Assembly: GCA_026025795.1 (NCBI GenBank)
Contig: JAPEUG010000124.1
Location: 1-40,757, forward strand
Length of the DNA stretch: 40,757 nucleotides
Source: Thelocarpon superellum
Lineage: Eukaryota
Reading direction: 5' to 3'
Shown: in pieces, positions 1,703 to 24,911 of the stretch
How positions within the stretch are numbered: position 1 is the stretch's first letter
Layout of the letters: each line of letters starts with the position of its first letter
The notes under the pieces: model-generated
Told to the model about the DNA's origin: nothing
Database searches by the model: none
The model's input: only the letters and a program-made list of their open reading frames with translations
Program-made: the position numbers and the translations under genes

Positions 1703-2584
1703 CTATTCTGTGCCGATGGTTTCGGAGCAGCTGCGGAAAAAAGCGGCGAGCGACTGCGGTTGAGACCAGCTCCGACATCGAGGAATGTCGCGCCAGGGGC
1801 CGGCCGTCATGCCGTCCCAGGTCTCGAAGTCGTAGGGAACGCTGATGCTCTTCGAGCCGAGATAGGCTTCATTCTGGCAGCCGCGTACGAACTCGCGGAA
1901 GGAACGGTCCATGTTCCACGAGGCGCAAGCCGGGCTTGGATTCCATCCTGAAGCTACCATCTGGTCGTAATCGCCCATGCCAAAGGCAACGGCGTCATTT
2001 TGCTCGCGTCTCCTCCGTGGCCTCCGCGAGATGCCGACGTGTGCGGCGCATGGCTTGAACCACGGACTTGTGTTGAGAGGATCGTACTCGGTGCAGATGT
2101 CATTTGCACCAGACGCCGACCCTGTGTCTCCATCCGATCCGAGCAGCCAGGAGCCAGACGTGGCCCCAAGGCTCCCTCGTCGCATTGGTTGTTGGGCTTC
2201 CGTCTCTGCGTCTGGCTCGGCGTGTGCAGGGGCGGGTACTGGGGCCGCGGCCGGGGCCGGGGCGGCTTCGCGCTTTTCGTCTCGTTTCTCTGGCGCATCC
2301 ATGTGGGTTGCTTGCTCGTCTCGCTTGGACAATTTGACGCCGCAGACATGGATGGGTCCGATGGGCATGCCGTTTTGGTCGGTGGGGATGTGATCCGGAC
2401 AGTTGAGGGTTCCGCCCGAGCTGCCTGTCACGCTGTCACCGCCGCCACCGAAGCTGTTGGCGAGGGCTCCAGCATCGCTTCGTGCCCAGATCGAGGGCGA
2501 GTTGCCCTGGTAGGGACGAGGGAGCGGCGCCGCCAACGCGAGGGCGACGGTGGCGACAATGACGGTACAGCTTGTGGTGTGCAT
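1703..2584 (-). CDS. Secreted Kex2-processed multi-module peptide precursor (KEP-like), 293 aa, unknown function
   Basis: ATG at 2584 (the ORF track starts at an upstream GTG). Signal peptide MHTTSCTVIVATVALALA|APLP. Dibasic sites: KR x3, RR and RRPRRRR. An EA-AP-AP-AA-AP-VP-AP dipeptide run follows a KR. Four Cys-pair modules. No intron needed. TATATA about 200 bp upstream. Confidence 0.8.
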   Translation of the reverse strand: MHTTSCTVIVATVALALAAPLPRPYQGNSPSIWARSDAGALANSFGGGGDSVTGSSGGTLNCPDHIPTDQNGMPIGPIHVCGVKLSKRDEQATHMDAPEKRDEKREAAPAPAAAPVPAPAHAEPDAETEAQQPMRRGSLGATSGSWLLGSDGDTGSASGANDICTEYDPLNTSPWFKPCAAHVGISRRPRRRREQNDAVAFGMGDYDQMVASGWNPSPACASWNMDRSFREFVRGCQNEAYLGSKSISVPYDFETWDGMTAGPWRDIPRCRSWSQPQSLAAFFRSCSETIGTE

Positions 2585-2778: not shown

Positions 2779-2784
2779 TATATA
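2779..2784 (-). promoter_or_regulatory. Putative TATA box of the peptide-precursor gene
   Basis: TATATA in a GC-rich context about 195 bp upstream of the ATG at 2584, followed on the - strand by a pyrimidine-rich leader. Confidence 0.45.
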
Positions 2785-3115
2785 TGAGCGCACGCGCTGG
2801 CGCAAGCGCGTCCATGCGCCCATCCCACTCTGGCCGAAGCGGGCGCCATCATGGAGGGGTGGGTGTGGGCGCCCTGGGCAACGAAGCGATTGGCATCTCA
2901 ACCGGCGTGAAAAAGTGCACCGGCCTGCGACGGAGGACCCAGTGGATCCGGATATGCCAGGCGAGGGAATAAAAAGTCTAATGGGGATTGCAGGACCTTT
3001 GGTCTGTCGTCACCGATCGAGTGCCGTCGGCGGCGCCGTCCCCGGCAGATGGGCCCTAGCCGTGGGATGGCTGGGCTGATAGCGGGCGTGGGAGGGCAGG
3101 GTCCTGGGACGCGGG

Positions 3116-3165
3116 CGGGAGCATGAGGGAGTCATGAGGGAGCGATGAGGGAGCGATGCGGGAGC
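3116..3165. repeat. Degenerate ~11-bp tandem repeat (GGGAGCGATGA-like, ~4 copies)
   Basis: gggagcatga gggagtcatga gggagcgatga gggagcgatgc gggagc read directly. Confidence 0.7.
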
Positions 3166-4950
3166 CACGACGTCCATCTTGGGTCCGAAGGGGGCAGGTC
3201 CGGCGGGCAGGAGCGCCTGACAAGAGAGCGGCCGCTGAGCAGGCAGGGCTGGCGGGGACTACGGACGCCGTGGACGAGCAGGGTGTGCAGATTCCGGCGG
3301 CCGGTCCTGGGAGCGAAGTGGCTCAGCAGGGCTCTCAGACGTGCGTTTGGTCCGGTGCTCCTGTGCGCCTGGGCTCTTCTGCTCCTCGACTGGAGCTGCC
3401 CGCGGGGGGGGGGCTCCAGCGTTGCCGATAATGACCGAGTGATTCTGTACTCGTCCTCGTGCTCGTCGGTGATGGGTGTGGATAGGCAAAGTCGGCTATC
3501 GACCTCGCATGATGTCGGTAATTGATCCTGGATCCAGGAACGAAGGCAACTGGCAGCAAGCGAGGCCCGACCTGGGCGCTACTACGCACTAACGGCGGAT
3601 ATTCGCGCAATTCCACCCTCTTGATCTGACAGGAAGCTGCTCGTGTCGCCAGCTCTCTTCTGGTATGTTTGCCACTGGCGTGCCCGGGGGCTCGGTCGGG
3701 TCGGCCAGCCACTCCATCTCAGATAGGTAACTACTAGGTCACGACGAGTCTGCGTCCTGTAGGCTCGGTCGGGTCTGGCGTCGTTGGGCTCGCCTGGGCT
3801 GGTCTGACCTGCTAGACTAGTCCCGTCGCCAGGCCAGCTTCTACTCGTGCATTGCCGTGCCCGCGTCCCAGGAGCTCCTTGAGCTCTCAGCGGACGTATG
3901 TTCCGTCGCCTGTGCCGGGGATGACTGGACCTACGTAATCCGAGCGCTCGCAAGAACGGTATGACCATGGAGCTATTTTGGGCTCGCGGGAACTCTGCCC
4001 ACTGACCATGTCCGGGCAACGTGCGGGTCTGGTGCCACAGAAAAGCCAAATTGCGGGCATTATGAAGACGAGCGGCGTTGTGAAAACCAGATCCACACCG
4101 TCATCGGATTGTTGGCATCGTGTCGCTGTGGATCTCACTTTTGCCACAGCATCGGACGACGATGCAAAACTCTGCGCAGATTCTTTCCCGCCACGCCCAT
4201 GCTCGTCTCGCCGGCTCGTCGCGCTCGCGCGGACGATTGGACCGCGGGAGGGGTCGGAGAGCATGTTTCTCCGATAGGCGAACGGGCTTCACGCCCAACC
4301 TTGCGGTCGGCTGGATAAAAATATCTCCGTTACAGCTGTCGTGAAGCACGTTCGTCCGCTTTGTCTCCGAGACGGCGGTTGGTTGCAACAGGGTGTGTGG
4401 CGAGCCGAACTTCTGTGGCTACCGTCATGCCCGCGGCGGTGAGGCAGGTGGTGGTGCGTGGGGGGGATGGTGACGTACGCACGGTTGCGATCCAGACGTC
4501 CGGACGCGCACCCAGGGTCATCACGGGGTGTGCGTGAGGAGGGGTGAAGGCGAACGTGCGCTTGCTTGAGCGATGCGTGGTGGGGCCATTGTTGGTCGGT
4601 CTTTTGACGCCTATCAACTGAAGTAGATTGATAGCGAAAGAAGCGAGCGAGCTTGACGCGCCCACCAGCCTGGGTGGGTGGGCACTGATACCGCGATAAC
4701 CCTCCCTTAAGCGTGGGATCGTCTTGAGCTGGCGTGCGATAGAATGGCGCCGGCGCTCGCAGTAGAAGGCGCGAAGAAGGGCGGTGGAAGGACGGAGAAC
4801 GCGTACAATGGCATCGCGACTGCGACCTGCGACCTGCAGCGTGAGTGCCGATACCAGCCACCAGGGCTTCCTTGGAAACGTTTCTGGAACTGCAGCCGCT
4901 GGAAGGTCGCACGCTCCGACCTTTACCCGCCCGTTACCGATGTTCTGCTA

Positions 4951-4985
4951 GCGAGCTGCGAGCTGCGAGCTGCGAGCTGTGAGCC
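4951..4985. repeat. 7-bp tandem repeat (GCGAGCT)x4 plus one degenerate copy
   Basis: gcgagct gcgagct gcgagct gcgagct gtgagcc read directly. Confidence 0.85.
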
Positions 4986-6181
4986 GGGTTGCAGCGCAAG
5001 ACACCGAGTCAGCATGACGTAGGACATGCTTGATCCAGCGAGCGAGCCGACGCACATGCTCGCAACGAGCAGTTTGGTTGCGACCTCATCCTGGTGGGAT
5101 GGCATGAGCACTCATCTGCGTGAGACCTGGGACCGCCTGCACTTCATGCGTCATCGGTATTATTCGATAGGGTAATAGCATTGGGACTGAAAGTCGATCT
5201 CGATCAAGCTGTCAAGGAGAGCAGAGCGAGGACTCCGTAAAGTGGAGCGGCCTTGCAGACCGGACTCGCGATAAGAGGAGATACGAGGTCTTTGGTGCGG
5301 CGCGGCTTCTACTTGACCAGGATGTCCTGGATGGCCGACGCGCGACGACTAGTCTAGTCTGTCTCTCAGGCAGCTATCGGTCGTAACGTTAGGGCTTGTA
5401 CGTCACGAGCATCGACAGCGAGCAGCAACGGGCGTAGCAACGGCCGCGAGGACCGCCGAGGTTCATACGCCGCCACTGCTAGAATGAGGGTGAACGGGTC
5501 TCTGTGATTCCTGGTCTCCAGACTCGTTTCGGGTCGGTGGCGTGTTGGGGGGCTCTGGCCTCTTGGAGCGGGTCCCTGCGTTTACTTGGCGCGATTTTGG
5601 CGTGGACTGTTGTTCGGGCCGCTTGTCTACAAGGATGAGGACAATAGGAAACGAGTAGGGCGACGCGGTGGTGCAACGCGTGCTGAAACGCTGAGCGATC
5701 GGCCACGCCGTTTTTCGCCCGTCACAGTGCGCCCGGTCTCACGCGTCGATAGGCCGTCAATCACCACGCCTGTTAGGCGCCTGTCGGACGCCTAGGGACG
5801 TTGTTTCTCGGCGGAGAGGCCGCTTGACGACGTCTGGCAACTGTTGATGCTGGTGCAGCCTCCTTTTGCTCCCACAGTTTGTCGGTGTCACCTCTCGGTG
5901 CGGCCTCCATTCGCTGCGCCGTCCAGCGACATTATCTATGACTGTTGAATGGGTGTTGTAGTATTCACATCTGCATTCATCACGGCTTCTCCAGCTATCC
6001 CGCGACTACTTAAGTGATGGGAGTCGCATCCTGACGCGTTCGATCTGTTCTGTCTTTCTCAGCTTCGTGTTCGAGTTTTCTATTGCGTCGTAGGGTATCT
6101 CGCTCGACGATTTCCTTCAGAGTCGTTCCTTTGACATCCATCCTCTGCTTCCCGGCTGCCTGGCGCAGTCGCCGCACGAGA

Positions 6182-6895
6182 ATGGCGCACGCTTCTTCCA
6201 ACATGATCTGTACGATCCTTCTCGTTTGCCTGGCCTTTGCCACTCACTCGACGTCGGCGCTGAGCGTCCGTCGTCAAACCACCGCTGGCACCACCTCGCC
6301 AAGCCTGGACATCACCGAAGCACAAGTCCTCCAAGTCTCCCCCGCGGCAAACACCTGCACCGGCGCCCCCTACGCCGACGAATGTGCCACGGCGGCACAA
6401 GCGGCCCCATACATCACGGCCGGCTTCCAGACCTACAGCATCACGACGTCTGGCGAGGCTGCAGCGCTACTGAGCCTGATGGCCTTTGAGAGCGGCGACT
6501 TCAAATACGACAAGAACCATTTCCCTGCGCCGGGCCGGCCGGGCCAGGGCACGCGCAACATGCAGTCCGCGGCCTTCAACAAGGAATACGCGGCGTCGAT
6601 CCCGAGTCTCGCCTCTCAATTCTCGTCTCTCGCTTCCCAGGGCGATGATGATACCACCGAGAACGCTATTCGTCAGCTCGTCCTCGCCGACCAGTACGAC
6701 TTTGCCTCGGCCGCCTGGTTCCTCACCTCTCAGTGCTCGTCGGCCGTGCGCTCTGCTCTGCAGGGTAGTAGTGGCAGCGAAGGCGTCGCTCTGCAGGCGT
6801 GGCAAGATTACATCTCGTCTTGCGTTGGCACGAGCCCGACGTCTGATCGGCAGGCGTACTGGGAGAAGGCTGTTACGGCCCTGAGCTCGGCCTAG
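6182..6895 (+). CDS. Secreted protein with GH19/lysozyme-like motifs, 237 aa
   Basis: ATG at 6182 (alternative Met at 6203). Hydrophobic signal ICTILLVCLAFATHSTSA, then a propeptide ending RR. Motifs FQTYSITTSGEAAALLSLMAFESGDFKY, GQGTRNMQ, FASAAWFL and DRQAYWEKAVTAL. Four Cys in the mature part. Strong GC3 codon bias. Confidence 0.85.
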   Translation: MAHASSNMICTILLVCLAFATHSTSALSVRRQTTAGTTSPSLDITEAQVLQVSPAANTCTGAPYADECATAAQAAPYITAGFQTYSITTSGEAAALLSLMAFESGDFKYDKNHFPAPGRPGQGTRNMQSAAFNKEYAASIPSLASQFSSLASQGDDDTTENAIRQLVLADQYDFASAAWFLTSQCSSAVRSALQGSSGSEGVALQAWQDYISSCVGTSPTSDRQAYWEKAVTALSSA

Positions 6896-7122: not shown

Positions 7123-10100
7123 TCACACATCCTTTTCCTTCTCCTTATCAGACATACTGCCCTGTCTCACGCTCCCTCTTCTTGCAGACCGACTGACCAC
7201 CACGCCGGGGAAGATGCGCGGCTCGGTGCCGCTTATATGTGCATGTCCTAGTTCTGTGGGCGCATGCGGGTTTGCATTCGCATGAGGTATCGTTGCCGGA
7301 GCGCTTGTGGCCGTGCTGCCCGGGGCGTTGGCGTGCGCTGATGTTGAAGCGGAGGGGGGAGTCGAAGCCGAGGCGGAGACGGAGGTGGGAATGGACGAAG
7401 GCATTGGAGGCACGGTCGGGGGCGGCGCCCTGCCTGTGGCATGAGGTGTGCGCAGGGCGTGATGAGTGATGGTGGAGAGTGGGCCGTCGGCTGGTTTTGC
7501 CTCTCCGCCGATTGTGGGTGCCGTGGCTGTCGAGGCTGATGGTGCGGCCTGGTTCTCCGCTTGGTTGGTATATCGTGCGATCCTATCACCACTCATCAGA
7601 GACGCGCTCAAGCGAGGAATGTGACGCTGCACGTAGCGTACATCGATAGCTCCTGCAACAGCGTCTCATGACGAAACGCCTCGCGAATGTTCGGCACGTT
7701 GCTCTTGGCCATGGTGTTGCCCGACACGCCTGGAAGATGGTAGTCCGGCCCCAACCATCGCTGCTTGATGGCATGTTCGAAGCCGCTTTGCTGCACCGAG
7801 TTCTTGGCCAGTTCGCACATATCCACGGCGCTGAGCTTGTAGATCTGTGCCGCGACGGAGTATTCTTCGATGAGCGGCTCCTTGGTGAAGGCGAACTGTA
7901 GCGGGTCGTCCGTCGAGAGCGAGACGCTGAGGCCGCGTTTGAAGTAGGGTAGAAAGGGGTTGCGCTCGTAGGCGAGAAAGAGCGCATTGTTGCTCAGCGG
8001 AGACATGGCGATCCCAATTTGCTCGAGATAGAAGATGTATTGTAGTAGAGGCACCTTGCGGAGCAGCAGGCCGTGGCTGATGCTGTGGCAGCAGAGCACC
8101 GCTGCGGCCAAGTGATCCGTGTCGCCCGCCTCGCCGCAATGGGGACGGAGGAGAAAGGTGTTGAAGCCCCGCCGCCGCCGCCACACGTTCAACGAGGCGA
8201 GGTTGGAGAAGAGATAATAGATCCAATAGCTGTACGGTGGATTCTGTAGCGTGTTCCACGACTTTGGCAGGGGAAACTTTCGATAGAGGCGCCGCTCCAC
8301 CTTGCTCTCGTCATCCACGCTGTCGAATCCGATGACCCGCTGCAGGAAAATGTGGAGTTTGGCATGACTGGACGGGTCTTGCGTGACCTCAAACAGCGGC
8401 TGGAAGAGGTTGATGATGACTTGCTCAAAGTGGACCATCAAGCCCGTCGACTTGTACACGTCGAAGAGGCGGGGCACCTGGATGAGCCAGCGCACGTTGT
8501 GTGAGAAGAGCTTGTTGTCCACCACCCACGCCGCCAGCTTGTCCCACTCGTCCAGGGTGCGACCGTAGATGGAGATGCGCCACTCGACCATCTGATACTT
8601 GCTCGACTCCAGGTCCGAAATGACTTCCTTCGTGATCTCCGCGAGGTAGCGGCCGTTGATGAAGTTGTCCGTCTTGAGAAAGATGGTGCGCAGCCGCGAT
8701 TCGCCGATCGGATTGTACTTGAGGTTGAACTTGTCAAACCGATGGAACGAGTCCGTGTGCGCGTGCATGTCCAGCGTGTCGATGCTGAGGTCGTATGCCG
8801 TCAGGTTGATGCTCTCAAAGACTTCCTTGAGCGTGAGATGCTTCCCATCCCGGAACATCACCACCTCGTCTGGGCACTTCTTCATCTTGCTCTTGATGAA
8901 GCGCAGGAGATGCTTCTGATTCATGCACGCCGAATGATGCACGTGCGTGTCGACCTTGCGCACATTGTAGAAATCTCGGTGCGGCACACGCTTGCTATCG
9001 GCCATCTCTTGGTACTCGTTGAGAAGCACGTACAGGTTGAACTTGCCCTCAAGATATTGGAGCCGTCGAAACGCGAAGCTCTTGCTGGGTCCGTCGGACG
9101 ACACATTGAGCACCTGATCGAGATCCATGTAGAATTCGCGAATCGTCGGCACGTTGACAATGGGCGTGTCCTCGTCGGCCGCGTCCGCGTCTGCATACAC
9201 CTGGAAGACGCTGTTCTCGTCCAATCGGAAGGTCATCTTGTCCGTGCAAGGCATGGGCAGAAGATCCTCCATCTCAAAGTCCTCGCCGATGTTCTCCCCT
9301 TGCTTCCGCCGACGACTCGGCGTTCCCGGCACTGGCTCCCCAGAAGATGGGGGTGGGCGGCGAAATGCGACGAGTTTGTCCCCATCAAGCGACGGGTCGG
9401 CAGTACCAGCGTGATTTGCCACGCCCGTTGTGTCTTCTTGCCAGACAGGCTCGGGCGGTGGGGGGTAGATGTGCCACGATGGTTGATCCTTGGGATTGTC
9501 TGCCGGCCCCTGCAAAGACAGGCGGATGTACTTGTGTCGTACATCCAGGACCTTCTGGATGTTGGTGTAGATGGCACTCAGCTCCGAGTGAATGCTGGAG
9601 TCACTGTCGACAAAGCCTCCGCTTCCGTTCCCCAGTCCTACTCCGGCGCCGGCGCCATGAAGACCTTGTGTGGCCAGTAGCGGTGGCTTATATTCATGTG
9701 GGAGTCCTGGGTGCATCGCATGGCTCCTGGCGAGGGCATCGGCCTCGAGGAGTGCAGCATGGGCGGGCTTGGACCCGGTGTTGGATAGGCCCTCGGACGG
9801 CCTTGAAGGGGGGGAAGCGCTTCCATTCCGGAGCTCGTCACGTTCCTCGCGTGAGGGCAGGGTGACCGTATGCGTGTCATGGTCCTCCATCGATCCCCGT
9901 GTGGGGCGGGTATGACAGCTGTTCCCGGCCTGGCCCATGAGAACGGTGGGATCGCTGGAACAGTGAGAGAAGCCATGGGGCCGGCCCAGCGGGGCTCCAC
10001 CCTCCGCTCCGTCGCCAGGTGGATTCTGCGCCTCGATCTGGCTCTGCTGATAGAAGAGCTTGGCGTCGGCGTGGCTCATCTGTTTCTCGGCCGCGTAGTC

Positions 10101-10452
10101 ATAGTAGGCGGTTTTGCGTTGTCGGTCCCGAGCCAAGGGGACTTGGGCGCCGTCTCCTTCGTCGTGGTCCATCGCGTCGTGCACTGGTGTAGCATCTTCG
10201 TTGACGTCCTCCTGCGTCCCTGTGGCTTCGACGCGGTCACGCCACGAGCCCATGGAGGAGGCATCCCCGTCATGCAACGATGTGCCGTCATACTGCTCCC
10301 GATCGTCGTCTGACAGATACTCGGCGTGGTGAAGCCGAGAAGCGCTCAGATGGGACGGAAGAGGTGTGAGTTTCGGACTCAGAGCTGAAGAGCCTATGAT
10401 CCGGTTAGACACCGCAGGGACGCAGCTTGGGAAGTGATCTACCTGTGGCCAT
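7123..10452 (-). CDS. AMD1: AMP deaminase, ~1073 aa; exons 10452-10443, 10393-7642, 7582-7123
   Basis: Motifs [36 protein letters not shown] and the catalytic [10 protein letters not shown]. Intron 10394-10442 (GTAGAT..CTAAC..TAG) joins MAT|GSSALS. Intron 7583-7641 (GTACGC..CTGAT..TAG) joins ELSM|IARYT and brings in the 7123-7632 ORF as the last exon. Confidence 0.97.
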
Positions 10453-10956: not shown

Positions 10957-13613
10957 CTAGTCGTCATCCTCAATATCGTCATCGCTCAGAACAAGTCGTG
11001 CAATACTCTGCTCGTCCGGTCGAGCAGGTCCAAGGGTGGAACCAAGCTGCTTCCGCGGATCTCGTGGTTTGGTCGTTGGTCGAGCAGCGAGTGGTCCATC
11101 TTCCACGGGCCGGTCCGTCGCCCAGTCCGATGTCCCGTTCGCCTCATCCTCGTCATCAGGGATCGCATCGTTTTGACCGTCGATGCCGCGAAAGGTTGTG
11201 ATGCTCTCCAATTGGCGACGAGGCGTGGGGTCGAGCGACGTTTTTGGGGCGATCTTGGCCAGGTAGGGTAAACGCTCGAGGATCATCTCCTGTCGGTCTG
11301 CTCGTCCACCCATCCCCGACATCGCGCTCTCCGGAGACGCAGGGGCGCTATCGCCAGTTGGGGGAACGCGGTACCCGGAAAAGCCAGGAGCCGCACTCGT
11401 CCACGACTGCACCACGCCCGCCGTGGTGGCCCGGTCGGTGCCAGCAGACGTGGTAGATACCCTGTCCAGCGGACCACCAGGTTGCTGGAAGCGACGGATC
11501 CAGGTGTCCACCAGGCCGCCCGTCTCCTCCGTCTGTCGCCACAGGCGTGATGAGGTAGGATAGAACATCTTGAAGACGTCGTTCGACCGTCCACCACCAA
11601 CGCCGCCGCCGCTACGAGACCCGGTCGAGAGGGCCCCGGCGGTAAAGGCGCGTCGCTTGACGGGGTGGGGGAGAGCAAATAGCATGCTGCGAACGGCCAC
11701 TTGAAAGCTCATCTCATCCTGTCGCATGGCATCCGAGGCGGTGCCGGGAGCGGCCCCGCCACCCCGGCCCGCGCCGAGGTCACTCTTCCAGTGCAGACAC
11801 AACAGGTCGCTGTTGGAAAGACCATCGACGCAGCCATTGATGGCGTCGAACATGGCTTCGATCGATGGCCCGTCGCACGACGGCAGGTAGTTCTCGTGCA
11901 GTGCGGCGAGGAAGGTGGACGTGTCTGTGCCAGTCTCATCAATCAGCTCATCGATCTGGACCTGCGATAGCTTCGGCCGTGCGTGACTTGAAAGGTGATC
12001 TGGTAAGAGCGTCTCAGGGCTCGTCATCGCAGGGGTGGCCACGGGGTCATCCCGTTTATTATACACCACCTTCCCAACGGCGTGGAAGATACCCAGGCTG
12101 GCCTCGCGCTGCGTGACCAGCTCGAGTGATTCCCGTTCCATCTTCGTCAGTGCGCTGGCGTCGGTCCGCGGTCGCTTGGAGGCGCCAAAGGCCACACTTG
12201 CGCCCCAGTCCTCTTCTTCGTCGCCCCGCAGGCAGAGAAATTCGAGAGAGCCTACGGCGCTTCTGATGTCGCCCACCTCCGCGAGTTTCTCTAGCACCCT
12301 AGGGCCGGGAGTCTTCCGTCTGCCAGACCGCCGTGATTCTTTCTGTACGATGAGACCCAGTGCTTTGGTCAGTAAGGTGCGTGCGATCGGATTGAATTCC
12401 ACAACCGAGACGGCCGGGTGGTGCAAGATGTCGGATCCAAGCAGCCGGTGGGCCGTAAAGCTGTCCGCAGCCGCCGAGCTGGTCGTCAACAGCGTCTCGG
12501 AGATGATCATGACCATGGGTGGGCTCGAGTCCGTCAGCGAGGCGGGGGACCGCCACTTGGCCGTTGCCGCCGCCGCGGCCGAGGCGAGATATTGGTGCAC
12601 GGCAGCGCGAAAGGATTGCAAGGCTGTGGAGGCGCGGGTGAAGGTGTTGGGGAACTCCTCAACCAGCACAATCTTTCGACGACTTGTGGGCTGCACCGGC
12701 GGCCCTTCGGCCTCGGTCAAGGCGAGGGCGCCGTAGGTGGCACTTCGCCCAATGAATTCCTCAAATTGGGCCGACATGGAGGAATATCCCTCACTCGTGG
12801 CCACGCTCCCCACCGGGTTTCGCCACTCCAGTATCTCGACGTCCATCGCCTGCGACAACAGATGGATGGCGGTCGTCTTTCCCGTTCCGGCCGGTCCTTT
12901 CAAGATCAGGAGTTTCTATCAAGTCCAGGTCAGATCTCGTCGTCGTACAAGGGTGAGATACACACCTGCCGCGTGGGTCCTCGTAGGCCATCCTGTAGCC
13001 AAGCTCGAACATCGGCCACTTTCTTCCGGTGGACCGCGAGCTCCTCGAGCGAGGTCGGCCCGTACTTTTCCGCCCATGGCCGTCGATCCAGCTCTTGAAG
13101 TCTCGTCCCTGGCTCCTCGCCCGGGGTTACCGAACCTGGTGGGGCCTTGAACCTGCGGCTCATCTGGATCACGTCCGATGGAATCTTCCGCCGGAGACTC
13201 GAGCCATGGCCTGCCTGGGTCGACGGGAGGTCGTCGTCTAGCGAGTCATCTTGAATCAGGTCCTCGTCGGGCTCGTCGGGCTCGTCGAGGACGGAGGTAG
13301 AGGGCCCAGTGCTGAGTGTGCTGTGAGCCGCTGCGGCGAAAAAGGTGGCAATAGATCGACCATTGGCCTGCGTTCCGTGGACGGCGTCGGCTTTCTTTGG
13401 AGAGGCCCGCGTCGTTCTCGAAGCGGTCCTGCCTCGTTTAGAATCGCCTTTAAAGGGGCTTGGAGGTTTGACATTCTCCGCTTCAACCTGAGTCTTCTTG
13501 GCCGCGATACGCCCGGAGATCGATGTCGAGCCATCGGGAGCATCGGATCCGTGATGGGGCAATGACGACGGCACAACGAGGCGCTTCTGCCGTTTCGCCG
13601 GACGAGCGGCCAT
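10957..13613 (-). CDS. RAD17: Checkpoint clamp-loader subunit Rad17 (S. cerevisiae Rad24), ~868 aa; intron 12916-12965
   Basis: PWAEKYGPTSLEELAVHRKKV, Walker A LKGPAGTGKTT, Walker-B-like VLVEEFP, GDIRSA sensor, IFHAVGKVVYNKR, LHENY and an acidic C-terminus LVLSDDDIEDDD. A 50-bp GTGTGT..CTGAC..TAG intron joins PTRQ|KLLILKG. Confidence 0.95.
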
Positions 13614-14269: not shown

Positions 14270-17200
14270 TCAGTATGGAAGATGATCGTGAGGATCATGC
14301 GGGTGATAGACGGGATTTTCGATCCGGATCAGACGCCGACGGTCGTCATACGCCGGTCCGCCCGGGAGGTCAGCCTCGAAGCGGGGATACGCGTGCAGGA
14401 CCTCGCGAGACTCGGGCGGGTTGACGAGAAATCCACCATGGCTAGGCGCAGCATGCGCCGGCACACGTCGCACAGGCATGTATCCACCTCGCTCTTCATA
14501 CTCGGGCACATAGGCCATCCGGTCATCGGCGTAAGTAACATAGGCCTCGTGCATCGGTTGGGCGTACATCGGTCGCGCCTCCGTTGTGACTTGTTCCGGC
14601 CGCACGCTGGCCGGCGAACGGGCGCGGTAGACGGGCTCGCGTCCTGCGGGTCGTGGAACAGATGCACGCTCACGCTCACGCTCGCGCGCCGAGAAATCAC
14701 CCTCCTCAAGCCGTGCCACGGTCGCGCGCGGTGGCGATCGCGATCGGTCGCGCACTGGTGCAGGGTCGGTGCGCATGTGCTCATACCGTCCGTAGCGGCT
14801 CCGTGGCCGGCGCGCATGCTCAAGGCCCAGTCGCTCATGGGACCCGGCGTGATTTGGCGACGTAGGGTCGGGAGCGATGCCATCGCCAGGATGATCGTCC
14901 ACGAGATCATGCGTTGGTGCAGAGCGTCGAAGTGCCTCACGCTCCCCTTGACGCTCCCCTTGTCGCTCATGTGCTGGATGTGGGTGGGTGTTGGGCCTCT
15001 CTCCGGGCTGCAAGCTATTGAGAAAGCGTTCGGCGGCGGTGAGCCCCTCACTTGGTGACGAGGCGGGATGTGCATGTTCAGCGCCCTCGGCGCTTGGATC
15101 GCCGCGGACCTCGCCGTCTTCGGACCCTTCCTGTGCCGCAACAAGCTCGCGTGCCGGCGGGCGACGCGGGTCATGATGGCGCGGGATGGGCGAACCACGG
15201 GCCCGGGCACGGGATGGTCGGGAATGCTCGTCGGCGTGGCCACCGGCCCATCGTGCCGCCGCGCGGCTGGGGGGAACACGCGCGACGCTGTCCGCACCAT
15301 CGAAGGCGGGGGCGTCGGGATGGGCGGGTCGCCCTCCGTCGGCGGATCGAGTGCCGTGGGCGTCATATCGTCGCGACGAGGGCGGGGCGTGGGATTCCCC
15401 CTCAGCCGAGATCTCGTGGGAGGGATAGAGGTGGCCCGACGGTTGAGAGCGCCGCGCGTCGCGGGTCGCCGCGCGTCGGGGCTCGGGCGCTTCGCGATGC
15501 GATGAGGAACGGCTTAGGGGGACCATGCTCGTCTGGCGGTACGGCGGGGCATGTGGAGCCGGTCCTTCTCGCGTGTCAGCAACGGGACGGTCAATCGTTT
15601 TTGAGTCTCGATAAGGGGGCCCCGGGATAGGTCCAGTTGTGCTGGCCGAGCCGATGACGGGAAGGGGCCATTGGAAGGCTTCGTGAAAGACTTCGGCGAC
15701 TAGCCGGAGCTTGTCATCATCCATTCCGGGCGCATGGAGCAGCGCCGCGATGACGCCGCGGTCCGGGAGCTCGACCATATCTTCCTTCCAGTCCAGCATG
15801 GGCGACGGATATCCCGCCGGCGTCCCTCGTGGCGGGGCGGCGCGCTCCACGTGCACGGTCCGGAAGTGGTGTAGCAGGGCGGGCAAGGTATAGACCTTGC
15901 GATCGCCAGTGGGGATCCGCGGCGGATGTCCATGGCCGGTGCCGTTCCTGAGGCAGGCTCTGCACGCAATCCCATTGAAGCTGTTGAGCGGCCTCATCTT
16001 CGGATGGGTGGCCAGTCCATCCATGAACATAGCCAGACTAGGATCATTGAAAAACTTGGAACGAAAACGGGAAAGCGTGTGATGAATGATGACTTGGAGC
16101 CGGACACTGCTCGATAGATTCTTGATCCCGGACGTCGAGGACCACAGTCCCCGGGCAATGGTGGCCATTTCCTCGAGCTGCGTCTCATACATGCCCCCAG
16201 GGGCGCCGGGCATCCCGAGCGGCGCGGCCCCTGCGCCTGGCGCGGCGTAATTAGCAACCGCGGCGTACCGGTCATACTCCTGCGACGCCGGCGGATACCC
16301 GGCTGCATTCAGCGGCGCGCGACCAGGTATCGGCGAGGGATAGGCTGGCGCGGGGTAGGGCGATCCAAAGCCTGGGGAGCCGTGCGGCGGGTATGGTCCG
16401 GGGTACACCTCGTAACCAGGGACGCTGCCGTGCGGGCCGTACGGGTACATGGAGCCTGAGGGATAGTAACCTTGGAGGGATCCATTGTACGCGTTGGGCA
16501 TGGGTAACATCCCTTGGGAATAGTTGGCCGGCGCCGGCGGATGGTACTGGCCTGGGCTGAAGGGGGGGTATCGGTTCCGTCCTCCCGCGGCGGCAGGGTG
16601 TGGGCTGGCGCCCGCACCTTGAGCGAAAGATCCATGCTTGGCGGAGGCATAATGCGGGTGGGGAGGACCGCCCAGTCCGGAGGCATGGCTGGGCGTCGCT
16701 CCAACATAGATGGCGGCCTTGGCCAGGTTGGGGTCCGGTTGAAAGGGCGAATGCTCGGGCCACTCGGCCTTCCAGTGGACGACGATGCTGCCCTGGCTGA
16801 GGGCGTTAGTATGTTTGGCGGCAAAATGCTGGATGACGCCCTCGAAGCCATAGAACTTGGCCGGGTGTTCACAGCCATGACACAGGAAGAGCTCCTTCCG
16901 GTACTGTTCCGTCAGAGGGCGCAGCTTCTGGTCGAAGACCCATTTCATGTTTTCCAGGATCAAGCGTTGGTGAGCCGGGGCCCTGCTGGCGCCGGCACCC
17001 TCGGGATCCGCGCCGTGGCGGGAAGTGACCTCCTCATAGTAGCGTTTGCGGACTTCGATCAAGACGTCCGCGGCAAACCTGGGGCTCGAATCCTTGGTGA
17101 TCCGATCGCGCGGCCAGCGCTCACGGATGATGTCGTCGGTCAGTCGGCCCAAGCGTTCCCGGATGGGCTGTTGGGCCTCCTCCCATTCCTTGTCCTGCAG

Positions 17201-19002
17201 CTCGCGGGCCTCGCGAGCGCTGGCTTCCTGCTGACGACGCTCCTCGATCTTGGCTTGGGACAGGACGCTCTGGGCGAGTCGTTCGCGCTCGATCCGTTCG
17301 GCGGTATCACGCTGAGCGACAAGCAGCGGGCGTAAGACGAACCACTGGCCCTCGGTCAGCGGCATGGAGATCTGCATGGCGTTCTGAAAGGATTCCATGT
17401 GGTTCAAGACCGCTGGGCCGATGGGCGGCGAGAGCATCTGGCAACGTCGCTCGATCTCGGCCCGTCGTGTGGCCTTGAGCTCGGTGACCTCGCGCATGCT
17501 GCGCTCCACCCGCGGCTGCTTGAAGGAGCCGTGGGCCGGATGCGGCGCGCCATTCTGGCTCGGTGAGGAGGAGTCCCGTGGGGGGAGCGTCGAGGCTAGC
17601 ACACCATGAGATGGATCGTGTGTCAATTTCTGAGAGCGGTCTGACTTACGGGTACGCGCGGATTCCCCGGTCATGTCTACCAAAAGCCGCGGACTGGCCA
17701 TAGAACCCGGTCTCGTAGACGTGGGGATGCTATCGCCCGGAGTGGCCCGGCCGGAGGCATGTGGCTCCGACAGGTCATGCAGATGTGAGGAAGGAGCGCC
17801 GTGGGTGGCAATTGGGGGCCGCTCAACGGAGCGCTTGGCCATCTTAACTTGCACCTTAGTCCAACCGCTCGAGGACTCCCATCGCTCCCATCGGGATGCG
17901 TCGGCGATGCGCTCTTTTCCGCGGCTGGCCAAACCCTTCAGCCACTCTTCGGTGGAGGCAGGGCCGAGGGCCTTGACCTCATTGAACTCCTGCGTAATGT
18001 CATCGATATGGTCACGAAGAAAATGCTTCGTCATCTGCAAGGTGGCATGAGTGACGGCGAGCGAGAGGGCCGTCGGCGTGATGACATGTACTTGCGGTGT
18101 GAGGAAGACAAACGGGAGGGCGGCGAGGAGGGCGAAGGGAATGGACGCCGAGGTCAGGAGGTCAATCTCCTGTCCACTCCGTCAGCATCTTGGAGGGCTT
18201 GCCGTGCGTTCTGCGCTAGGTGGCTCACCTTGTCTGATCGCTCGAGAAGACATGATCCGCAGCTCCGCAGGCGAAAGGGCCAGATGGGACGGACTCGATT
18301 CTCTCCCAGCGCGGGCTCCCATGGGTGATCAGGGCGCGAGACATAGGGCGCGGTGATGGCGGAGGCGAGGTCTCGTTTCCCGCAAAAGTGACAGGACTTC
18401 CCACCGACCAATCTCCACATGTCTAGCTCCGTGAAGCCACTCAAGGGTTTGGGCATCTCCGGCAGGAAGCGTCGCCGTGATGCCACCCAGATGGCATTCG
18501 CCGTATCATGCGGGGCACCGGTCGAGCGCGAGGGCGTGAGCCATGCCCGAAAGTGGGAGCTCACCCGGAGAAGCGTGGCCAGGTCTGGTGGCGGGACGAA
18601 GGGAAAGACGTGTTGCCAGATTTCAGGTGTCAGCGATGATCGATCCTGAGGCCGCGGAGCCGAGCGCGCATGATCGCTCCGCTTGAGACGTTTCGGCTGG
18701 TGTCGCTCGACGGATTCATGGTCGAAGCTCCGAGGGCTCGCAGGGGTCCGGTGTGTAGGATCGTGACCGTTGGTGTACGGATTGCCTCCAGGCAGGACCG
18801 GACTTCGCCGCTCGGGCGAGGCGGGGCGTTTGTGGTGGCGAGGCGAGGTGTCGGGACGGTCCGCATCGGCAAGGTCGTCGCCTGATGAGATCTCGCCTTC
18901 CTCAATGCTGTCTTGGTCATTTGGCCGCGACGAGGAGGTCGGCGTCGGCGATGCGCTCGAGGCGGAGGGATTCAGCACGAGAAAGTCTTCTGTGACCGCC
19001 AT
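14270..19002 (-). CDS. Large F-box-like / zinc-finger protein of unknown function, ~1539 aa; introns 18170-18228 and probably 17596-17649
   Basis: F-box-like LTPEIWQHVFPFVPPPDLATLLRVSSHFR. CxxC pairs (CHFC, CGSC). C2H2-like motifs LCHGC..IQHFAAKH and CRAC..LHHFRTVH. Coiled-coil region, Pro/Tyr-rich linker and disordered Arg-rich tail. Intron GTGAGC..CTGAC..CAG joins ERSDK|EIDLL in frame with the 1256-aa ORF. Confidence 0.85.
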
Positions 19003-20648: not shown

Positions 20649-23224
20649 ATGGCCACGCTAAACCTATCTACCAACGGCCCGTCCATCACCAAGAGCTATC
20701 AGTCCGTCGTCGATGCACCACCGCCCACTGGTCCCGCGGCCTCCTCATCCACTTACGGACAGTGGGCCGTTTTCTCGGTGTCCGCCCCTTTAGCCACTGC
20801 CTTCGAGCAGAGTGCCAGCGGCAAGGAGAGTGTGTTAAAGGTGCAGAGCACCGGCGGTATGGGGACCCTCTCAACCCAGCCCAGGCCGTTCGTCACCATG
20901 GGTCGGACGCTCAGCTAACGAATGCATGGCTACAGCGGGCGAGTTGGTGGATTTGATCGAGGAATTCTCAGATGGACGAATTCAATTCGCCTTCGTCAAG
21001 GTCAAAGACCCCAACACTGCGCTGCCCAAATTTGCCCTCATTGGTTGGTGCGGCGAAGGCGTGCCAGAGCGCACCAAGGGCTACTTCACCAGTCATCTGG
21101 CTGCGGTGGGCAACACCCTGCGCGGCTACCACGTCCAAATCACCGCCCGCACCGACCGAGACCTCACTCCTGAAGGCATCATGCAGAAAGTGTCAGATGC
21201 GTCGGGCTCCAAGTACTCAGGGGGCAGTGCATCCTCGACGTCGGCGTCATCCGGACCACCCCCACCCATTGCCTCCAAGCCCGTCTTCACCCCTACTCGC
21301 GTCAGCAGCAGCGGCGGGGGAAGTGGATTCAACCCCCTGGCTGGCGCGCGATCCCGTCCCGGTGCAGCCAAGAACGCCAACGTCGATGCCGACGGCTGGG
21401 GACAGGATGCACCGCCCGTTACGCGCACGCAGCTGGAGAAAGTCCCGTCGGCCTATAACCCCACCAAGGTCAACATGAGCGAGCTGACCCGGCAGAAAGA
21501 AGCCCCGTCACGCTTCACGCCTACCGTCACAGACACGCCTGACACCAGGGCTGATGTCGTCAAGGGCGCCTATCAGCCCGTGGGAAAGGTCGACATCGCT
21601 GCCCTCCGCCGGCAGGCCCAAACGTCCAGCACGAGCCAGGATGACCGTCCGACGACGGTCAAGGGCGCCTACGAACCCGTCGGCAAGGTTGACATTGCCG
21701 CAATCCGGGCCCGAGCACAGCCTCCTCAGCTCCACGATGCCGCTCCGGCCGCGGGACCAATCGCACCCGTGACTGTGGGGACTGCGACGGCGACCGCAAC
21801 GCCATCAGAACGGCTTACGTCGCTCCCTAAGCCACGCGTGGCCAATAAGTTTGGCTCCGGCGTGGCCAGCTTCACTGGGACCAGAGCCCCGACGCCAGGA
21901 GGCTTTGGGACCGATCTCAAATCTCCCCCAGCCGCGCCTCCGGTCGGTGCGGCAAGTCGGACATTTGCGGATGAGGGCGGCAAGACCCCGGCACAGCTCT
22001 GGGCCGAGAAGAAGGCCCGCGAGCGGGGCGTCAGTGGCACCAACGAGACGCCCTCCGCGACCGCGATCGGTGGACCGCCGTCGCCGATGGCGAGCCAGAA
22101 GAGTGGCGGCGAGTGGAAGAGCGGCTATTCGGGCAAGAGCTGGGCGCCTGTGGCCACGACTGCCACTGGACGCTCGGGTACCAGCAGCCTCGGTCAGCAG
22201 CGGACCGGACCGGACGACGAGCCGGCCGACGACGGCGTCACGTCCCCGGCCGGTGGGGTAGGGGCGCTTCGTGACCGCTTCAAAGGAGCGGCGCCCATGG
22301 GTGCTCCCACTTCCGCCCCCGGCTCGACGGATGATGGCCATGCGCCCGCCCCGCCTCCGCTGAACACGTCGAATAAGCCGAACGCTGGCGTGCCCATGCC
22401 CGGCTTGCCGATGCGTCCACGGCAGGTGGAGGCCGCGACGATCCCACCACCGCCCGCGGTACCTCGAAGTCCAACACCGCCCACGCCACCGGCCATGGAA
22501 TCGGGATCGCCGATCCGCATCGTCATGCCCATCGGCCGGGGCAACGACGCCGACGTGGAACCGCCGGAGGAACGGTTGGACCCACCTGCCTTTCCCACCG
22601 CGTCTCTCGCCCAGGTCGCGCCGCATGAGGACGAGCTTACGGAGGAGCCCGTGGGACACGACCCGGCCCGCGGCGCCGGCGAGGCGGTGGCGGGGGCATC
22701 TTTTGGTGCTGGCGCCTCAGCCCCATCGGGCAGTGGCAAGCGCGCGCTCGTGCAATACGACTACGAAAAGGCCGAGGATAACGAGCTGGACCTTAAGGAA
22801 GGCGAATACGTCACCAACATTGACATGGTCGATGAAGACTGGTGGATGGGCGAGAACGCACACGGCGAGACGGGTCTCTTTCCGAGCAACTACGTCGAGC
22901 TCGTTGAAAGCGAGGAGGCCCAGGCTCCGGTGCCTGAGCCCCACGTTCATCACGAGCCTGAACCAGTCCCGGCTGCGCCTACTCGGGCCGAGGGGCCCAG
23001 CGCCGTCGCGCTTTATGATTATGAGGCGGCCGAGGACAACGAGCTGACATTTGCCGAGGGGTCCAAGATTGAGGGCCTGGTAAGTCATCTATCCGAACAC
23101 CCCGGCGGGGCGGACGGTGTATTGATGATTGCCATAGGAGTTCCCCGACGAGGATTGGTGGTTCGGACACCACAACGGGAAGAGTGGACTCTTCCCATCC
23201 AATTACGTCCAGCTCGAGGAGTGA
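20649..23224 (+). CDS. ABP1: Actin-binding protein Abp1/drebrin-like (ADF-H domain, Pro-rich region, two SH3 domains), ~812 aa; introns 20857-20935 and 23080-23137
   Basis: ADF-H domain FAFVKVKDPNTALPKFALIGWCGEGVP. SH3 #1 ALVQYDYEKAEDNEL..DWWMG..GLFPSNYVE. SH3 #2 ALYDYEAAEDNEL|EFPDEDWWFG..GLFPSNYVQLEE is completed only after splicing out the GTAAGT..TAG intron. Confidence 0.96.
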
Positions 23225-23892
23225 ACCATCGATGCATCGGAAGCCGGCCGGGTGTGTTTTAAGTAAAAAGCGCCTTGTTGTCTTCTAGCTCTCGTAGATG
23301 GCCATCTGCCGTGAAATCACACGAGTCTTGCATTTCATCTCTGGCATCGATCAATTCTATGGATTAGACGTACAAGCCATCCGATCGAGAGGCTACCCCA
23401 GCTAGCATCGTAAGATCTTCGGGGCTTCCTTGCATAACCCGGGCGTTCCAGTCGGAATGACTGCTGGCGTGCTGGGTAGGCTACGGTTCGCGACAGCGAC
23501 CCGCCGGTTGAAAAGCAAACGATTCCGGTATCGGCTCAGGCGATGACGAAGTGGAGAAAGAGTCGTAGATAATTGGCTCGCGGCACTGGCGCCGCTTGAA
23601 AGTGCTGATTAATCTAGTATGCGTGATGCGAGATGCGAGATGCTCAATGTCCATGACTGGCACAACTACAGGGCCTCTCCACTTCTCTTTACTTCTTTAC
23701 TTGAATTCTAGGATTCCTTGAATTCTCTTCCTCCCATCTGTTTATCAAATCCATTGCAGATGACTAGGAAGCAGCAATCCTACTGATTAAGTAGACCAGA
23801 AACCCGCAACATTCGTCCGGCCCGCATACCCCACCACCCCACTACGTCCCCTCGGTCAGCCAGGCGTGGTCCCATCTTCAGCGCGAGAGAAA

Positions 23893-24911
23893 ATGGCGAG
23901 CTTGGAGGAGGTCAGCCAGGAGAGCGACTTTCGCTCGCGTCTCGAGCAAGCCCCGCCATCCACCCTGATCGTCATCTACTTCCACACGCCATGGGCCGCG
24001 CCATGCGAACAGATGCGCACCATCCTCTCTACGCTCGCCTCATCATACCCTGCATCGACCGCGTCTACGCCATCCTCTCCCATATTCCTGAGCCTGGATG
24101 CCGAAGATCTTCCCGATGTCTCCGAGAGCTATGACGTCTCCGCCGTGCCATTCATAGCTCTCCAGAAAGACGGGAAGGTAGTGGAGAGCATCAGCGGTAT
24201 CGATCCCGCTCGTATCCGCGCCGCTGTCGAAAGACACGGCGGCAGCGCCAGGGCGGACAAGGCTGGATCCAAGACGCTTCCACCCCCCCAAACCATCGCA
24301 GCGCCCTCGACTGCCATCGCGCCCGCCACCAACGGCGGCAGTGGCAGTGGCAATGCCGGCCCCCATCCCACCACGACCGAAATGTCCACCAGCGACGCCC
24401 CCGCCGCCGTGACCGCCACCGTACCCGAAGACCTCCACGCGCGCCTCACATCTCTTGTACAAGCGGCCCCCGTCATGCTGTTCATGAAGGGCACGCCGTC
24501 CTCGCCCCAATGCGGATTCAGCCGGCAACTGGTCGGCCTGCTGCGTGAGCGAGGCGTGCGATATGGCTTCTTCAACATCCTCGCCGACGACGAGGTCCGT
24601 CAGGGCCTGAAGGAATTTGCGGACTGGCCTACCTTTCCCCAGCTGTGGGTCAAGGGGGAGTTGGTCGGGGGGTTGGATATTGTAAGTTGCACGCGCGTCT
24701 TTCTTTTCCTGAAAACTCCATCTGGACGTATCACTCTCCCCGTGTACCCTATGGTGCTGATTCTTGCAAATTCCAGGTCAAGGAGGAAGCGGCGGCGGAT
24801 CCGGCCTTTTTGAGCGAACACGCAGTCAAGAGCAACAACGCTGCTGTATCGGAGAACGGCGCTGCGTCAACCCCGAACTTACCTGCGCAGCAGACGGTCA
24901 CCACAGCCTAG
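23893..24911 (+). CDS. GRX4: Monothiol glutaredoxin Grx3/4 (Trx + Grx domains), ~307 aa; intron 24682-24776
   Basis: Trx-like WAAPC. Grx domain PVMLFMKGTPSSPQCGFSRQLV..WPTFPQLW..GGLDI. The intron GTAAGT..GCTGA..CAG joins GGLDI|VKEE. Confidence 0.96.

Follow-up and report, generated by a model that had tools for sequence, protein, structure and literature searches.

A predicted kexin-processed polyprotein with disulfide-loop cassettes, encoded by an orphan gene of the fungus Thelocarpon superellum

The DNA analysed here (the window) comprises 40,757 nucleotides of contig JAPEUG010000124.1 from the Thelocarpon superellum assembly GCA_026025795.1, and contains on its minus strand the gene for a putative secreted polyprotein, designated P0001. 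The gene is an intronless open reading frame (ORF; positions 1703-2584) of 293 codons plus stop that starts at the first ATG 3' of an in-frame stop codon, and a protein identical to P0001 (293 residues) is present in NCBI nr. A preliminary description of this DNA had presented the ORF as the precursor of several disulfide-looped peptides that could be released by Kex2-type and trimmed by Ste13-type proteases, and every element listed in that description was recovered in place on recomputation (Table 1). The elements of P0001 were examined together with those of its one relative, an 813-residue protein designated P0002.

The only hydrophobic segment of P0001 was N-terminal (Kyte-Doolittle value of 2.84 for residues 8-18, compared with 1.33 for the best segment beyond residue 30) and was followed by the motif A-L-A-A, while the best 19-residue window past residue 30 reached 0.15 and the C terminus was not hydrophobic. 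Small residues are favoured at positions -3 and -1 of signal peptide cleavage sites, a rule that places the predicted cut at A18/A19. The earlier claim of a signal peptide was thus borne out in a rough test, in which hydrophobicity was combined with a reading of the motif by eye. Beyond a short basic pro-region, module A proper (residues 36-86, positions 2327-2479) adjoins LSKR and module B proper (residues 137-186, positions 2027-2176) adjoins ISRRPRRRR. In the spacer between them, the two EKR motifs end at residues 101 and 105 and MRR occupies residues 134-136, and the pieces so delimited are acidic, with isoelectric points (pI) of 4.05-4.15. The loop of cassette B (CTEY..NTSPWFKPC) contains one N-glycosylation sequon. 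Module C consists of C1, which extends to about residue 245, and C2, from about residue 246, with Cys residues at positions 220, 236, 270 and 286. All of the predicted products of P0001 were acidic (pI 4.0-4.5). A loop ending in [WFI]-x-x-x-C was common to all module types when the alignment was read by eye.

Table 1. Features of the P0001 gene and of the remainder of the window (aa, amino acid residues of P0001)
Feature	Positions	Strand	Basis or content
Predicted signal peptide, aa 1-18 (MHTTSCTVIVATVALALA)	2531..2584	minus	hydrophobicity; likely cut A18/A19
Short, basic pro-region up to IWAR, aa 19-35	2480..2530	minus	aligns with P0002 SQSLLKR/QSDA
Cassette A with KR, aa 36-88 (53 aa)	2321..2479	minus	Gly/Ser-rich lead, Cys62-x18-Cys81 loop, tail GVKLS, KR
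Acidic Pro/Ala-rich spacer, aa 89-136	2177..2320	minus	cut by EKR, EKR, MRR
X-Ala/X-Pro run EA-AP-AP-AA-AP-VP-AP, aa 106-119	2228..2269	minus	seven in-register dipeptides directly after KR105
Cassette B with RR, aa 137-188 (52 aa)	2021..2176	minus	Gly/Ser-rich lead, Cys164-x14-Cys179 loop, tail, RR
Polybasic junction RRPRRRR, aa 187-193	2006..2026	minus	aligns with P0002 SKARR/D ahead of Cb module
Double module C, aa 194-293	1706..2005	minus	pair of C-x15-C loops; dibasic sites absent within
TATA-like hexamer	2779..2784	minus	200 nt 5' of P0001 ATG
AATAAA	1516..1521	minus	182 nt 3' of P0001 stop codon
AMP deaminase	7608-10451	minus	Pfam scan of ORFs
Rad17/Rad24	10957-12915	minus	Pfam scan of ORFs
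DUF7892 protein	14270-18181	minus	Pfam scan of ORFs
Cofilin-SH3 (Abp1-like) protein	20839-23262	plus	Pfam scan of ORFs
Thioredoxin-glutaredoxin fusion	23791-24813	plus	Pfam scan of ORFs

Repetition within P0001 was assessed from Smith-Waterman scores compared with those of shuffled sequences. C1 and C2 were clear duplicates (score 75, with 0 of 2000 shuffles as high). A and B were weakly alike, and it was the Gly/Ser-rich part that drove the score (41, with 20 of 2000 shuffles as high), while A and B each matched the counterpart of the other in P0002 with scores of 50 and 52 (0 of 1000 shuffles each). No significant likeness was noted between A/B and C, for which 786 and 392 of 2000 shuffles scored as high. 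Thus, the proposal of two module types, each of them duplicated, held firmly for C1 and C2 and more weakly for A and B, with the cross-matches in P0002 in addition.

An exhaustive phmmer search of 1,835,955,588 representatives returned three proteins at E<=0.001, namely the query, P0002 (E 2.4e-6) and a protein designated P0003. The match to P0002, an orphan in its own right that is encoded on a 3.4-Mb contig from a different assembly, spanned residues 194-287 of P0001, and pairwise BLASTP of the two proteins gave an E value of 1e-11 at 24-28% identity. P0003 (881 residues, E 3.1e-4) is a bacterial repeat protein with many VSGWTDLVAVSAG units and was judged by eye to be a chance or low-complexity match. 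P0002 was therefore the sole true relative found, and the family recognised here by sequence comparison has two members.

Over the whole length of P0001, P0002 was co-linear with it, both proteins passing from the leader through A, an acidic spacer and B to C-C, with dibasic sites at each end of the spacer and after B. Both leaders start with MH, continue with a hydrophobic core and end in A-[LI]-A/A-P (AIA/AP in P0002). Cassette A of P0001, IWAR/SDAGALANSFGGGG...LNCPDH...C, aligned with LLKR/QSDATVGAYGASGG...LNCPEM...C of P0002 (residues 100-152; score 59), and cassette B aligned with residues 160-212 of P0002 (CTEW..ISPWIHMC; score 53), in each case with 0 of 1000 shuffles as high. C units of both proteins conformed to Y-x-x-M-x-x-x-G-W-x(5)-C-x2-W-x(4-5)-S-x3-F-x3-C, and C1 and C2 aligned with the P0002 units Cb and Cc. 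In addition to these shared parts, P0002 has N-terminal loops, a third C unit and three further C-terminal loops, two of which are followed by RR or KR while the last one forms the C terminus. Amid its Cys-loop cassettes, residues 263-433 comprise seven Ala-rich repeats of 24-25 residues, each ending in KR or RR. Such a block of repeats bounded by KR or RR is the hallmark of the KEX2-processed repeat proteins (KEPs), and six of the seven begin with a single QA. It was also noted that P0002 contains an odd number of Cys residues (21), six N-glycosylation sequons and a C-terminal KLDE. The possibility that the Pro/Ala-rich spacer of P0001 is one copy of the P0002 repeat was unsupported, since between 157 and 499 of 1000 shuffles scored as high against the seven repeats.

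Other searches added no members. Pfam contained no family for P0001 (E<=10) or P0002 (E<=1), and PDB sequences gave 0 matches to P0001 at E<=10. Word-index searches restricted to proteins of near length recovered from 8000 scored candidates only the query itself, both for P0001 and for residues 1-813 of P0002. A similar search with residues 500-813 of P0002 among shorter proteins gave 340 candidates, none at E<=1, and did not recover P0001 itself; this type of search is thus blind at such divergence and its blanks are uninformative on family size. One metagenome locus, the only one of 507 pattern-matching stretches to pass tblastn, was judged spurious by eye: the pattern used for searching (SGWSPSPAC) forms part of its match, and its 175-residue frame is overlapped by an open frame of 644 residues. 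Nor was a paralogue of P0001 found in the window, where tblastn matches elsewhere were at E>=2 (e.g., positions 4325-4516 at E 4.9). The family was undescribed in the open-access literature searched, although the supplementary KEP tables of PMC6339444 and PMC7329392 could contain similar cassette proteins.

Dibasic motifs were enriched about 4-fold in both proteins. Thus, [KR]R occurred 8 times in mature P0001 compared with 1.79 times expected (1 of 5000 shuffles reached 8) and 20 times in mature P0002 compared with 4.58 expected (0 of 5000 shuffles), the latter count being inflated by the seven related repeats. Dibasic runs accounted for 14 of the 26 Lys and Arg residues of P0001 and 39 of the 78 of P0002. 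None of these sites was inside a defined Cys loop in either protein, the C-K-R-L-C stretch of P0002, with its one KR, not being counted as a loop. A site was present within 12 residues downstream of seven of nine P0002 loops (90 of 5000 circular shifts as high) and of two of three P0001 loops, the latter not significant alone (548 of 5000 circular shifts). All four comparable internal boundaries were dibasic in both P0001 and P0002: LSKR and TRRR after A, QQPMRR/GS and DEMIERR/GG at the end of the acidic spacer before B (the P0002 spacer reading RRR/DEMIERR), SRR and ARR after B, and RRRR/E and ARR/D before C. The C1-C2 junction of P0001 and the Cb-Cc junction of P0002 were alike in having no dibasic site. 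These findings agree with the earlier proposal of a precursor with Kex2-type sites between its modules, and loss of these sites and of the Cys residues from homologues, which the preliminary description had named as evidence to the contrary, was not seen in P0002, which retains the Cys pairs as well as the dibasic sites at cassette borders.

Cutting in silico at KR and RR divided P0001 into 8 fragments (70, 13, 4, 31, 52, 3, 2 and 100 residues), of which those with Cys were of 53 (if WAR is also cut, and 70 otherwise), 52 and 100 residues. The 20 fragments of P0002 included Cys-bearing pieces of 52, 51, 53, 52 and 54 residues and double units of 103 and 113 residues. Cys-bearing cassettes of about 52 residues were thus strikingly regular in both proteins. 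A preference of kexin for Leu or another aliphatic residue at P4 is described in PMC8528282; LSKR and ISRR of P0001 have an aliphatic P4, and acidic residues follow four of its six dibasic clusters.

To judge from its sequence, P0001 is a real, orphan and secretion-targeted gene, for which homology to P0002 is the strongest support. Its G+C content at third codon positions (GC3), 0.70, was above that of the two remaining frames on this strand (0.61 and 0.59) and falls in the range noted for neighbouring genes (0.70-0.79). The same two contigs of 151 nt, at depth 2, were found in each of two metatranscriptome runs (X4 and X5). One lay on positions 2369-2519 with 0 differences, and the other, which spans the 5' leader and start codon, lay on 2576-2726 with 6 differences. 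These contigs lend weak support to a transcript, the absence of which the preliminary description had named as evidence against its proposal. In two DNA runs labelled moss metagenome (X2 and X3), positions 2074-2701 were present with 3 differences in 628 bases, including a G>A at 2196 that by translation changes A130 to V in the acidic Pro/Ala-rich spacer. This match shows only that the sequence occurs in those runs, but, as two of the differences (both in the 5' leader) recur in the RNA-library contigs, a close strain of the source fungus may live on moss. A stop-free frame of 215 codons antisense to P0001 (1952-2599, plus strand; GC3 0.64) was also noted, with nothing in its support, and is most likely a by-product of high G+C.

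Structure prediction lent no support to a single globular fold of P0001, the outcome that the preliminary description had opposed to its own proposal. The AlphaFold2 model of the whole protein, obtained with a 2-row alignment, had a mean predicted local distance difference test score (pLDDT) of 39.6, a predicted template modelling score (pTM) of 0.18 and no residue that reached a pLDDT of 70; no secondary structure was predicted before residue 200, and helices were confined to residues 206-287. The C region alone gave a pLDDT of 52.0 and a pTM of 0.40, with one helix before, and one ending at, each second Cys. The ESM Atlas model of P0001 had a pLDDT of 0.42. In the ESM Atlas, the nearest cluster to the whole protein, 'Pheromone 1' at 0.76, was below the usable level and was set aside, with structure rows at TM-scores <=0.26, and for the C part by itself there was no feature match and TM-scores were <=0.36.

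The X-Ala/X-Pro dipeptides that constitute the Ste13 signature (PMC6339444) followed only one of the six dibasic clusters of P0001, with seven dipeptides after KR105 and 0 after the other five clusters. Within residues 106-119, E106 and V116 were the only residues other than Ala or Pro. Since both occupy first positions of dipeptides in a Pro/Ala-rich stretch, the correct register is suggestive, though not improbable. The run leads into an acidic remainder of 15 residues and not into a Cys module. Thus, the seven in-register dipeptides of the earlier claim were present, but at a single cluster in a Pro/Ala-rich spacer, and Ste13 trimming of this spacer is possible but peripheral.

The reading that we favour, at a probability of roughly 0.5, is that P0001 is a kexin-processed polyprotein from which three acidic disulfide-loop peptides and the intervening spacers would be released. 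The ORF with its composition, the enriched sites, the module repeats and the co-linearity with P0002 are observed; that the protein is secreted, how its Cys residues pair, each of the cuts and any activity are what we infer from the sequence and from one distant relative. The signal peptide would bring the precursor into the endoplasmic reticulum, where one intramolecular disulfide loop would close per cassette. A Kex2-type kexin of the late Golgi would then cut after KR and RR in exposed, unstructured linkers, a Kex1-type carboxypeptidase would trim the basic tails from the fragments and a dipeptidyl aminopeptidase of the Ste13 type may take dipeptides off the spacer that starts with X-Ala/X-Pro. 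The predicted products are A (about 51 residues, pI 4.5, one disulfide), B (about 50 residues, pI 4.05, one disulfide, possibly N-glycosylated) and C (100 residues, pI 4.5, two disulfides, helical), together with small acidic peptides derived from the spacer. As a guess, the likeliest activity is extracellular signalling or interaction in a moss-associated fungus, a role of the products as toxin, effector or signal being pure conjecture.

Several observations weigh against this processing. The pro-region of the preliminary description is present, but it ends in the monobasic, non-canonical WAR, whereas the aligned site of P0002 is canonical L-x-K-R. The RR/P site (residues 188/189) has Pro at P1', which is unfavourable. 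P0001 falls short of the three similar fragments asked of a KEP, since only A and B are alike and the C repeats share one fragment. The argument from conservation depends on one relative, P0002. With a 2-row alignment, any orphan would be likely to score a low pLDDT, and the description of the linkers as unstructured is for that reason weakly founded. The contigs of X4 and X5, being identical, may represent one data set twice and could reflect DNA carry-over, and none of the four runs, whether of RNA or of DNA, gave a contig on positions 1594-2063, although contigs cannot show absence.

The window is about 60% G+C, eukaryotic and fungus-like, with several housekeeping genes in long and nearly intron-free frames (Table 1). 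Pfam families for DUF3328, tyrosinase or other tailoring enzymes were found in 0 of 37 flanking ORFs (15 of at least 200 residues across the window and 22 of at least 100 residues within about 5 kb of P0001), a scan limited on one side by the 1.7 kb between the 3' end of P0001 and the contig end. The next recognisable feature upstream of P0001, 3.6 kb away and divergent, was a second orphan of secretion-like character, a 237-residue ORF (6182-6895, plus strand) with a hydrophobic N-terminal leader, several Cys residues and no Pfam family (E<=1). The intervening 3 kb or so (2900-6000) contained no convincing ORF, with no Pfam match in 12 frames of at least 100 residues, and tandem repeats were noted at 3117-3167 (11-mer, 4.7 copies) and 4951-4984 (7-mer, 4.9 copies).

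Secretion of P0001 as an intact or once-cut modular protein, for example of the hyphal surface or matrix, in which the basic pairs are linker features or only partly used, is a somewhat doubtful alternative. It would then be a flexible, low-complexity chain that bears small disulfide-stapled knobs and acts as a single piece. Such a protein would be in keeping with the linker-like appearance of the Gly/Ser-rich and Pro/Ala-rich stretches and with fungal wall and secreted proteins, which often use a Kex2 site only for propeptide removal, as reported for Ywp1; according to PMC5784256, C. albicans has 147 potential Kex2p substrates. The roughly 4-fold enrichment of dibasic sites and the conservation of boundaries at 24-28% identity are, however, hard to square with passive linkers, exposed KR and RR should be accessible to kexin during passage through the Golgi, and P0001 has no hydrophobic C terminus of the glycosylphosphatidylinositol-anchor type. 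Processing like that of effectors with a Kex2-processed pro-domain (K2PP), in which only the C-terminal, four-Cys helical domain of 100 residues functions while everything upstream is a disposable pro-region or chaperone, appears unlikely. The strongest site, RRPRRRR, does directly precede module C, and this module is the best conserved part and the sole one with predicted helices, but P0002 conserves A and B as well, by the scores given above, with Cys pairs and flanking sites kept as would be expected of products rather than filler. A pro-region of 175 residues would, moreover, be unusually long for the class.

The two remaining alternatives were given little weight. That P0001 is no functional gene but an open frame that arose by chance in DNA of 62% G+C is very improbable: high G+C does yield long spurious frames, the antisense frame of 215 codons being an example, and word-index searches gave no close relatives, but the match to a co-linear protein of another assembly, at a database-wide as well as a pairwise level, argues against chance, as do the frame-specific GC3, the proper leader, the promoter-like and poly(A)-like signals and the RNA-library contigs. 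[quoted passage not shown] Although a signal peptide with Kex2 sites is also the logic of ust-type precursors, the features of this type given in PMC7329392 are repeated short cores and nearby genes for DUF3328 proteins and tyrosinase, whereas P0001 contains no short repeated cores of the Y-x-I-x type and the identifiable neighbours in the scan described above, of which the 3' side covered only 1.7 kb, were housekeeping genes.

A wider and tentative reading is that P0001 and P0002 belong to a previously undescribed, lineage-restricted 'cassette' prohormone family in which a module of about 52 residues has been duplicated, lost and mixed with KEP repeats. The unit would in that case consist of a Gly/Ser-rich lead, a loop closed by one disulfide and terminated by [WF]-x-x-x-C, and a dibasic site for cutting. 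One gene would then yield a cocktail of disulfide-stapled peptides (three for P0001, and a dozen plus seven linear repeats for P0002), and a single evolutionary series would unite KEPs of the repeat type with polyproteins that lack repeats, Ece1 among them. Kex2-made peptide signals and toxins of fungi have mostly been found through near-identical short repeats, and precursors of the P0001 type, with dissimilar, longer and disulfide-looped products, escape such screens. Processing as proposed would provide a new scaffold of secreted fungal peptides and a worked example of how polyproteins arise when modules are duplicated and their cut sites conserved. Its practical usefulness is modest for now, the account of P0001 being a well-formed hypothesis on an orphan gene of a moss-associated fungus.

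Comparison with known systems placed P0001 near, rather than in, the KEPs. In PMC6339444, KEPs are recognised by a signal peptide without a transmembrane segment, four or more fragments that are two residues or longer, at least 3 similar fragments and repeats that make up at least 15% of the protein. P0001 has a signal peptide and no transmembrane segment by the rough hydrophobicity test, and its 8 fragments exceed the number asked for; A and B together make up 105 of its 293 residues. Similarity of fragments was judged here by Smith-Waterman scores and shuffles in place of the FIMO step of that paper. With fewer than three similar fragments, P0001 should be kept out of the KEPs, but P0002, with seven repeats of a minimal 24 residues (168 of 813 residues, or about 21%), would be counted among them. 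P0001 resembles KEPs, including the alpha-factor precursor, in its signal peptide, its peptides bounded by KR or RR and one KR followed by X-Ala/X-Pro (Le Marquer et al. 2019, PMC6339444; Umemura 2020, PMC7329392). It differs in that its units are disulfide-loop cassettes of about 52 residues as opposed to short near-identical peptides, and in that the C repeats are undivided by a site. Nor does it have the alpha-factor arrangement of X-Ala/X-Pro before each repeated peptide, the run being present at one of six clusters and before an acidic spacer piece. The contrast with classic KEPs drawn in the preliminary description was nevertheless too strong, since 79 of 1193 published KEPs carry several motif types (77 with two and 2 with three; PMC6339444) and Ece1p is a known Kex2 polyprotein (PMC5784256).

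Candida albicans Ece1p, the candidalysin precursor and a secreted preproprotein of 271 residues with seven KR motifs, is cut into peptides by Kex2p and then Kex1p, as shown experimentally (PMC5784256). Being likewise small, led by a signal peptide and provided with several dibasic motifs, it is the closest analogue of the proposed working of P0001 (271 compared with 293 residues). The likeness is one of architecture and not of directly compared sequence. The Ece1p peptides are not known to contain Cys and include a hydrophobic cytolysin, unlike the acidic and disulfide-looped products predicted for P0001.

Yeast killer preprotoxins of the K1 type are arranged as delta-alpha-gamma-beta and mature through Kex2 and Kex1, the spacer between two Cys-bearing modules being removed at dibasic sites (10.1101/2024.10.11.617966). 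P0001 is similar, again by architecture alone, in its leader and pro-piece and in Cys modules parted by a spacer with dibasic sites. The chains of K1 are kept joined by inter-chain disulfides whereas each cassette of P0001 has its own Cys pair which, together with the up to a dozen loops of P0002, favours independent units. In K2PP effectors such as SnTox3, ToxA and SIX1/4/6, a Kex2 site of the L-x-K-R type parts a pro-piece from a Cys-containing mature part (PMC8528282). P0001 shares a site of this type and a Cys-containing, putatively secreted part, and a strong site precedes its C domain. In contrast with the single cleavage and single folded domain of these effectors, P0001 has six dibasic clusters, five of them upstream of that site, together with conserved upstream modules, and the fold of C was not predicted with confidence (pLDDT 52.0). 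As judged from its sequence, P0001 is thus a variant on the known Kex2-type fungal polyprotein that introduces no new principle, and its prohormone-like design is convincing.

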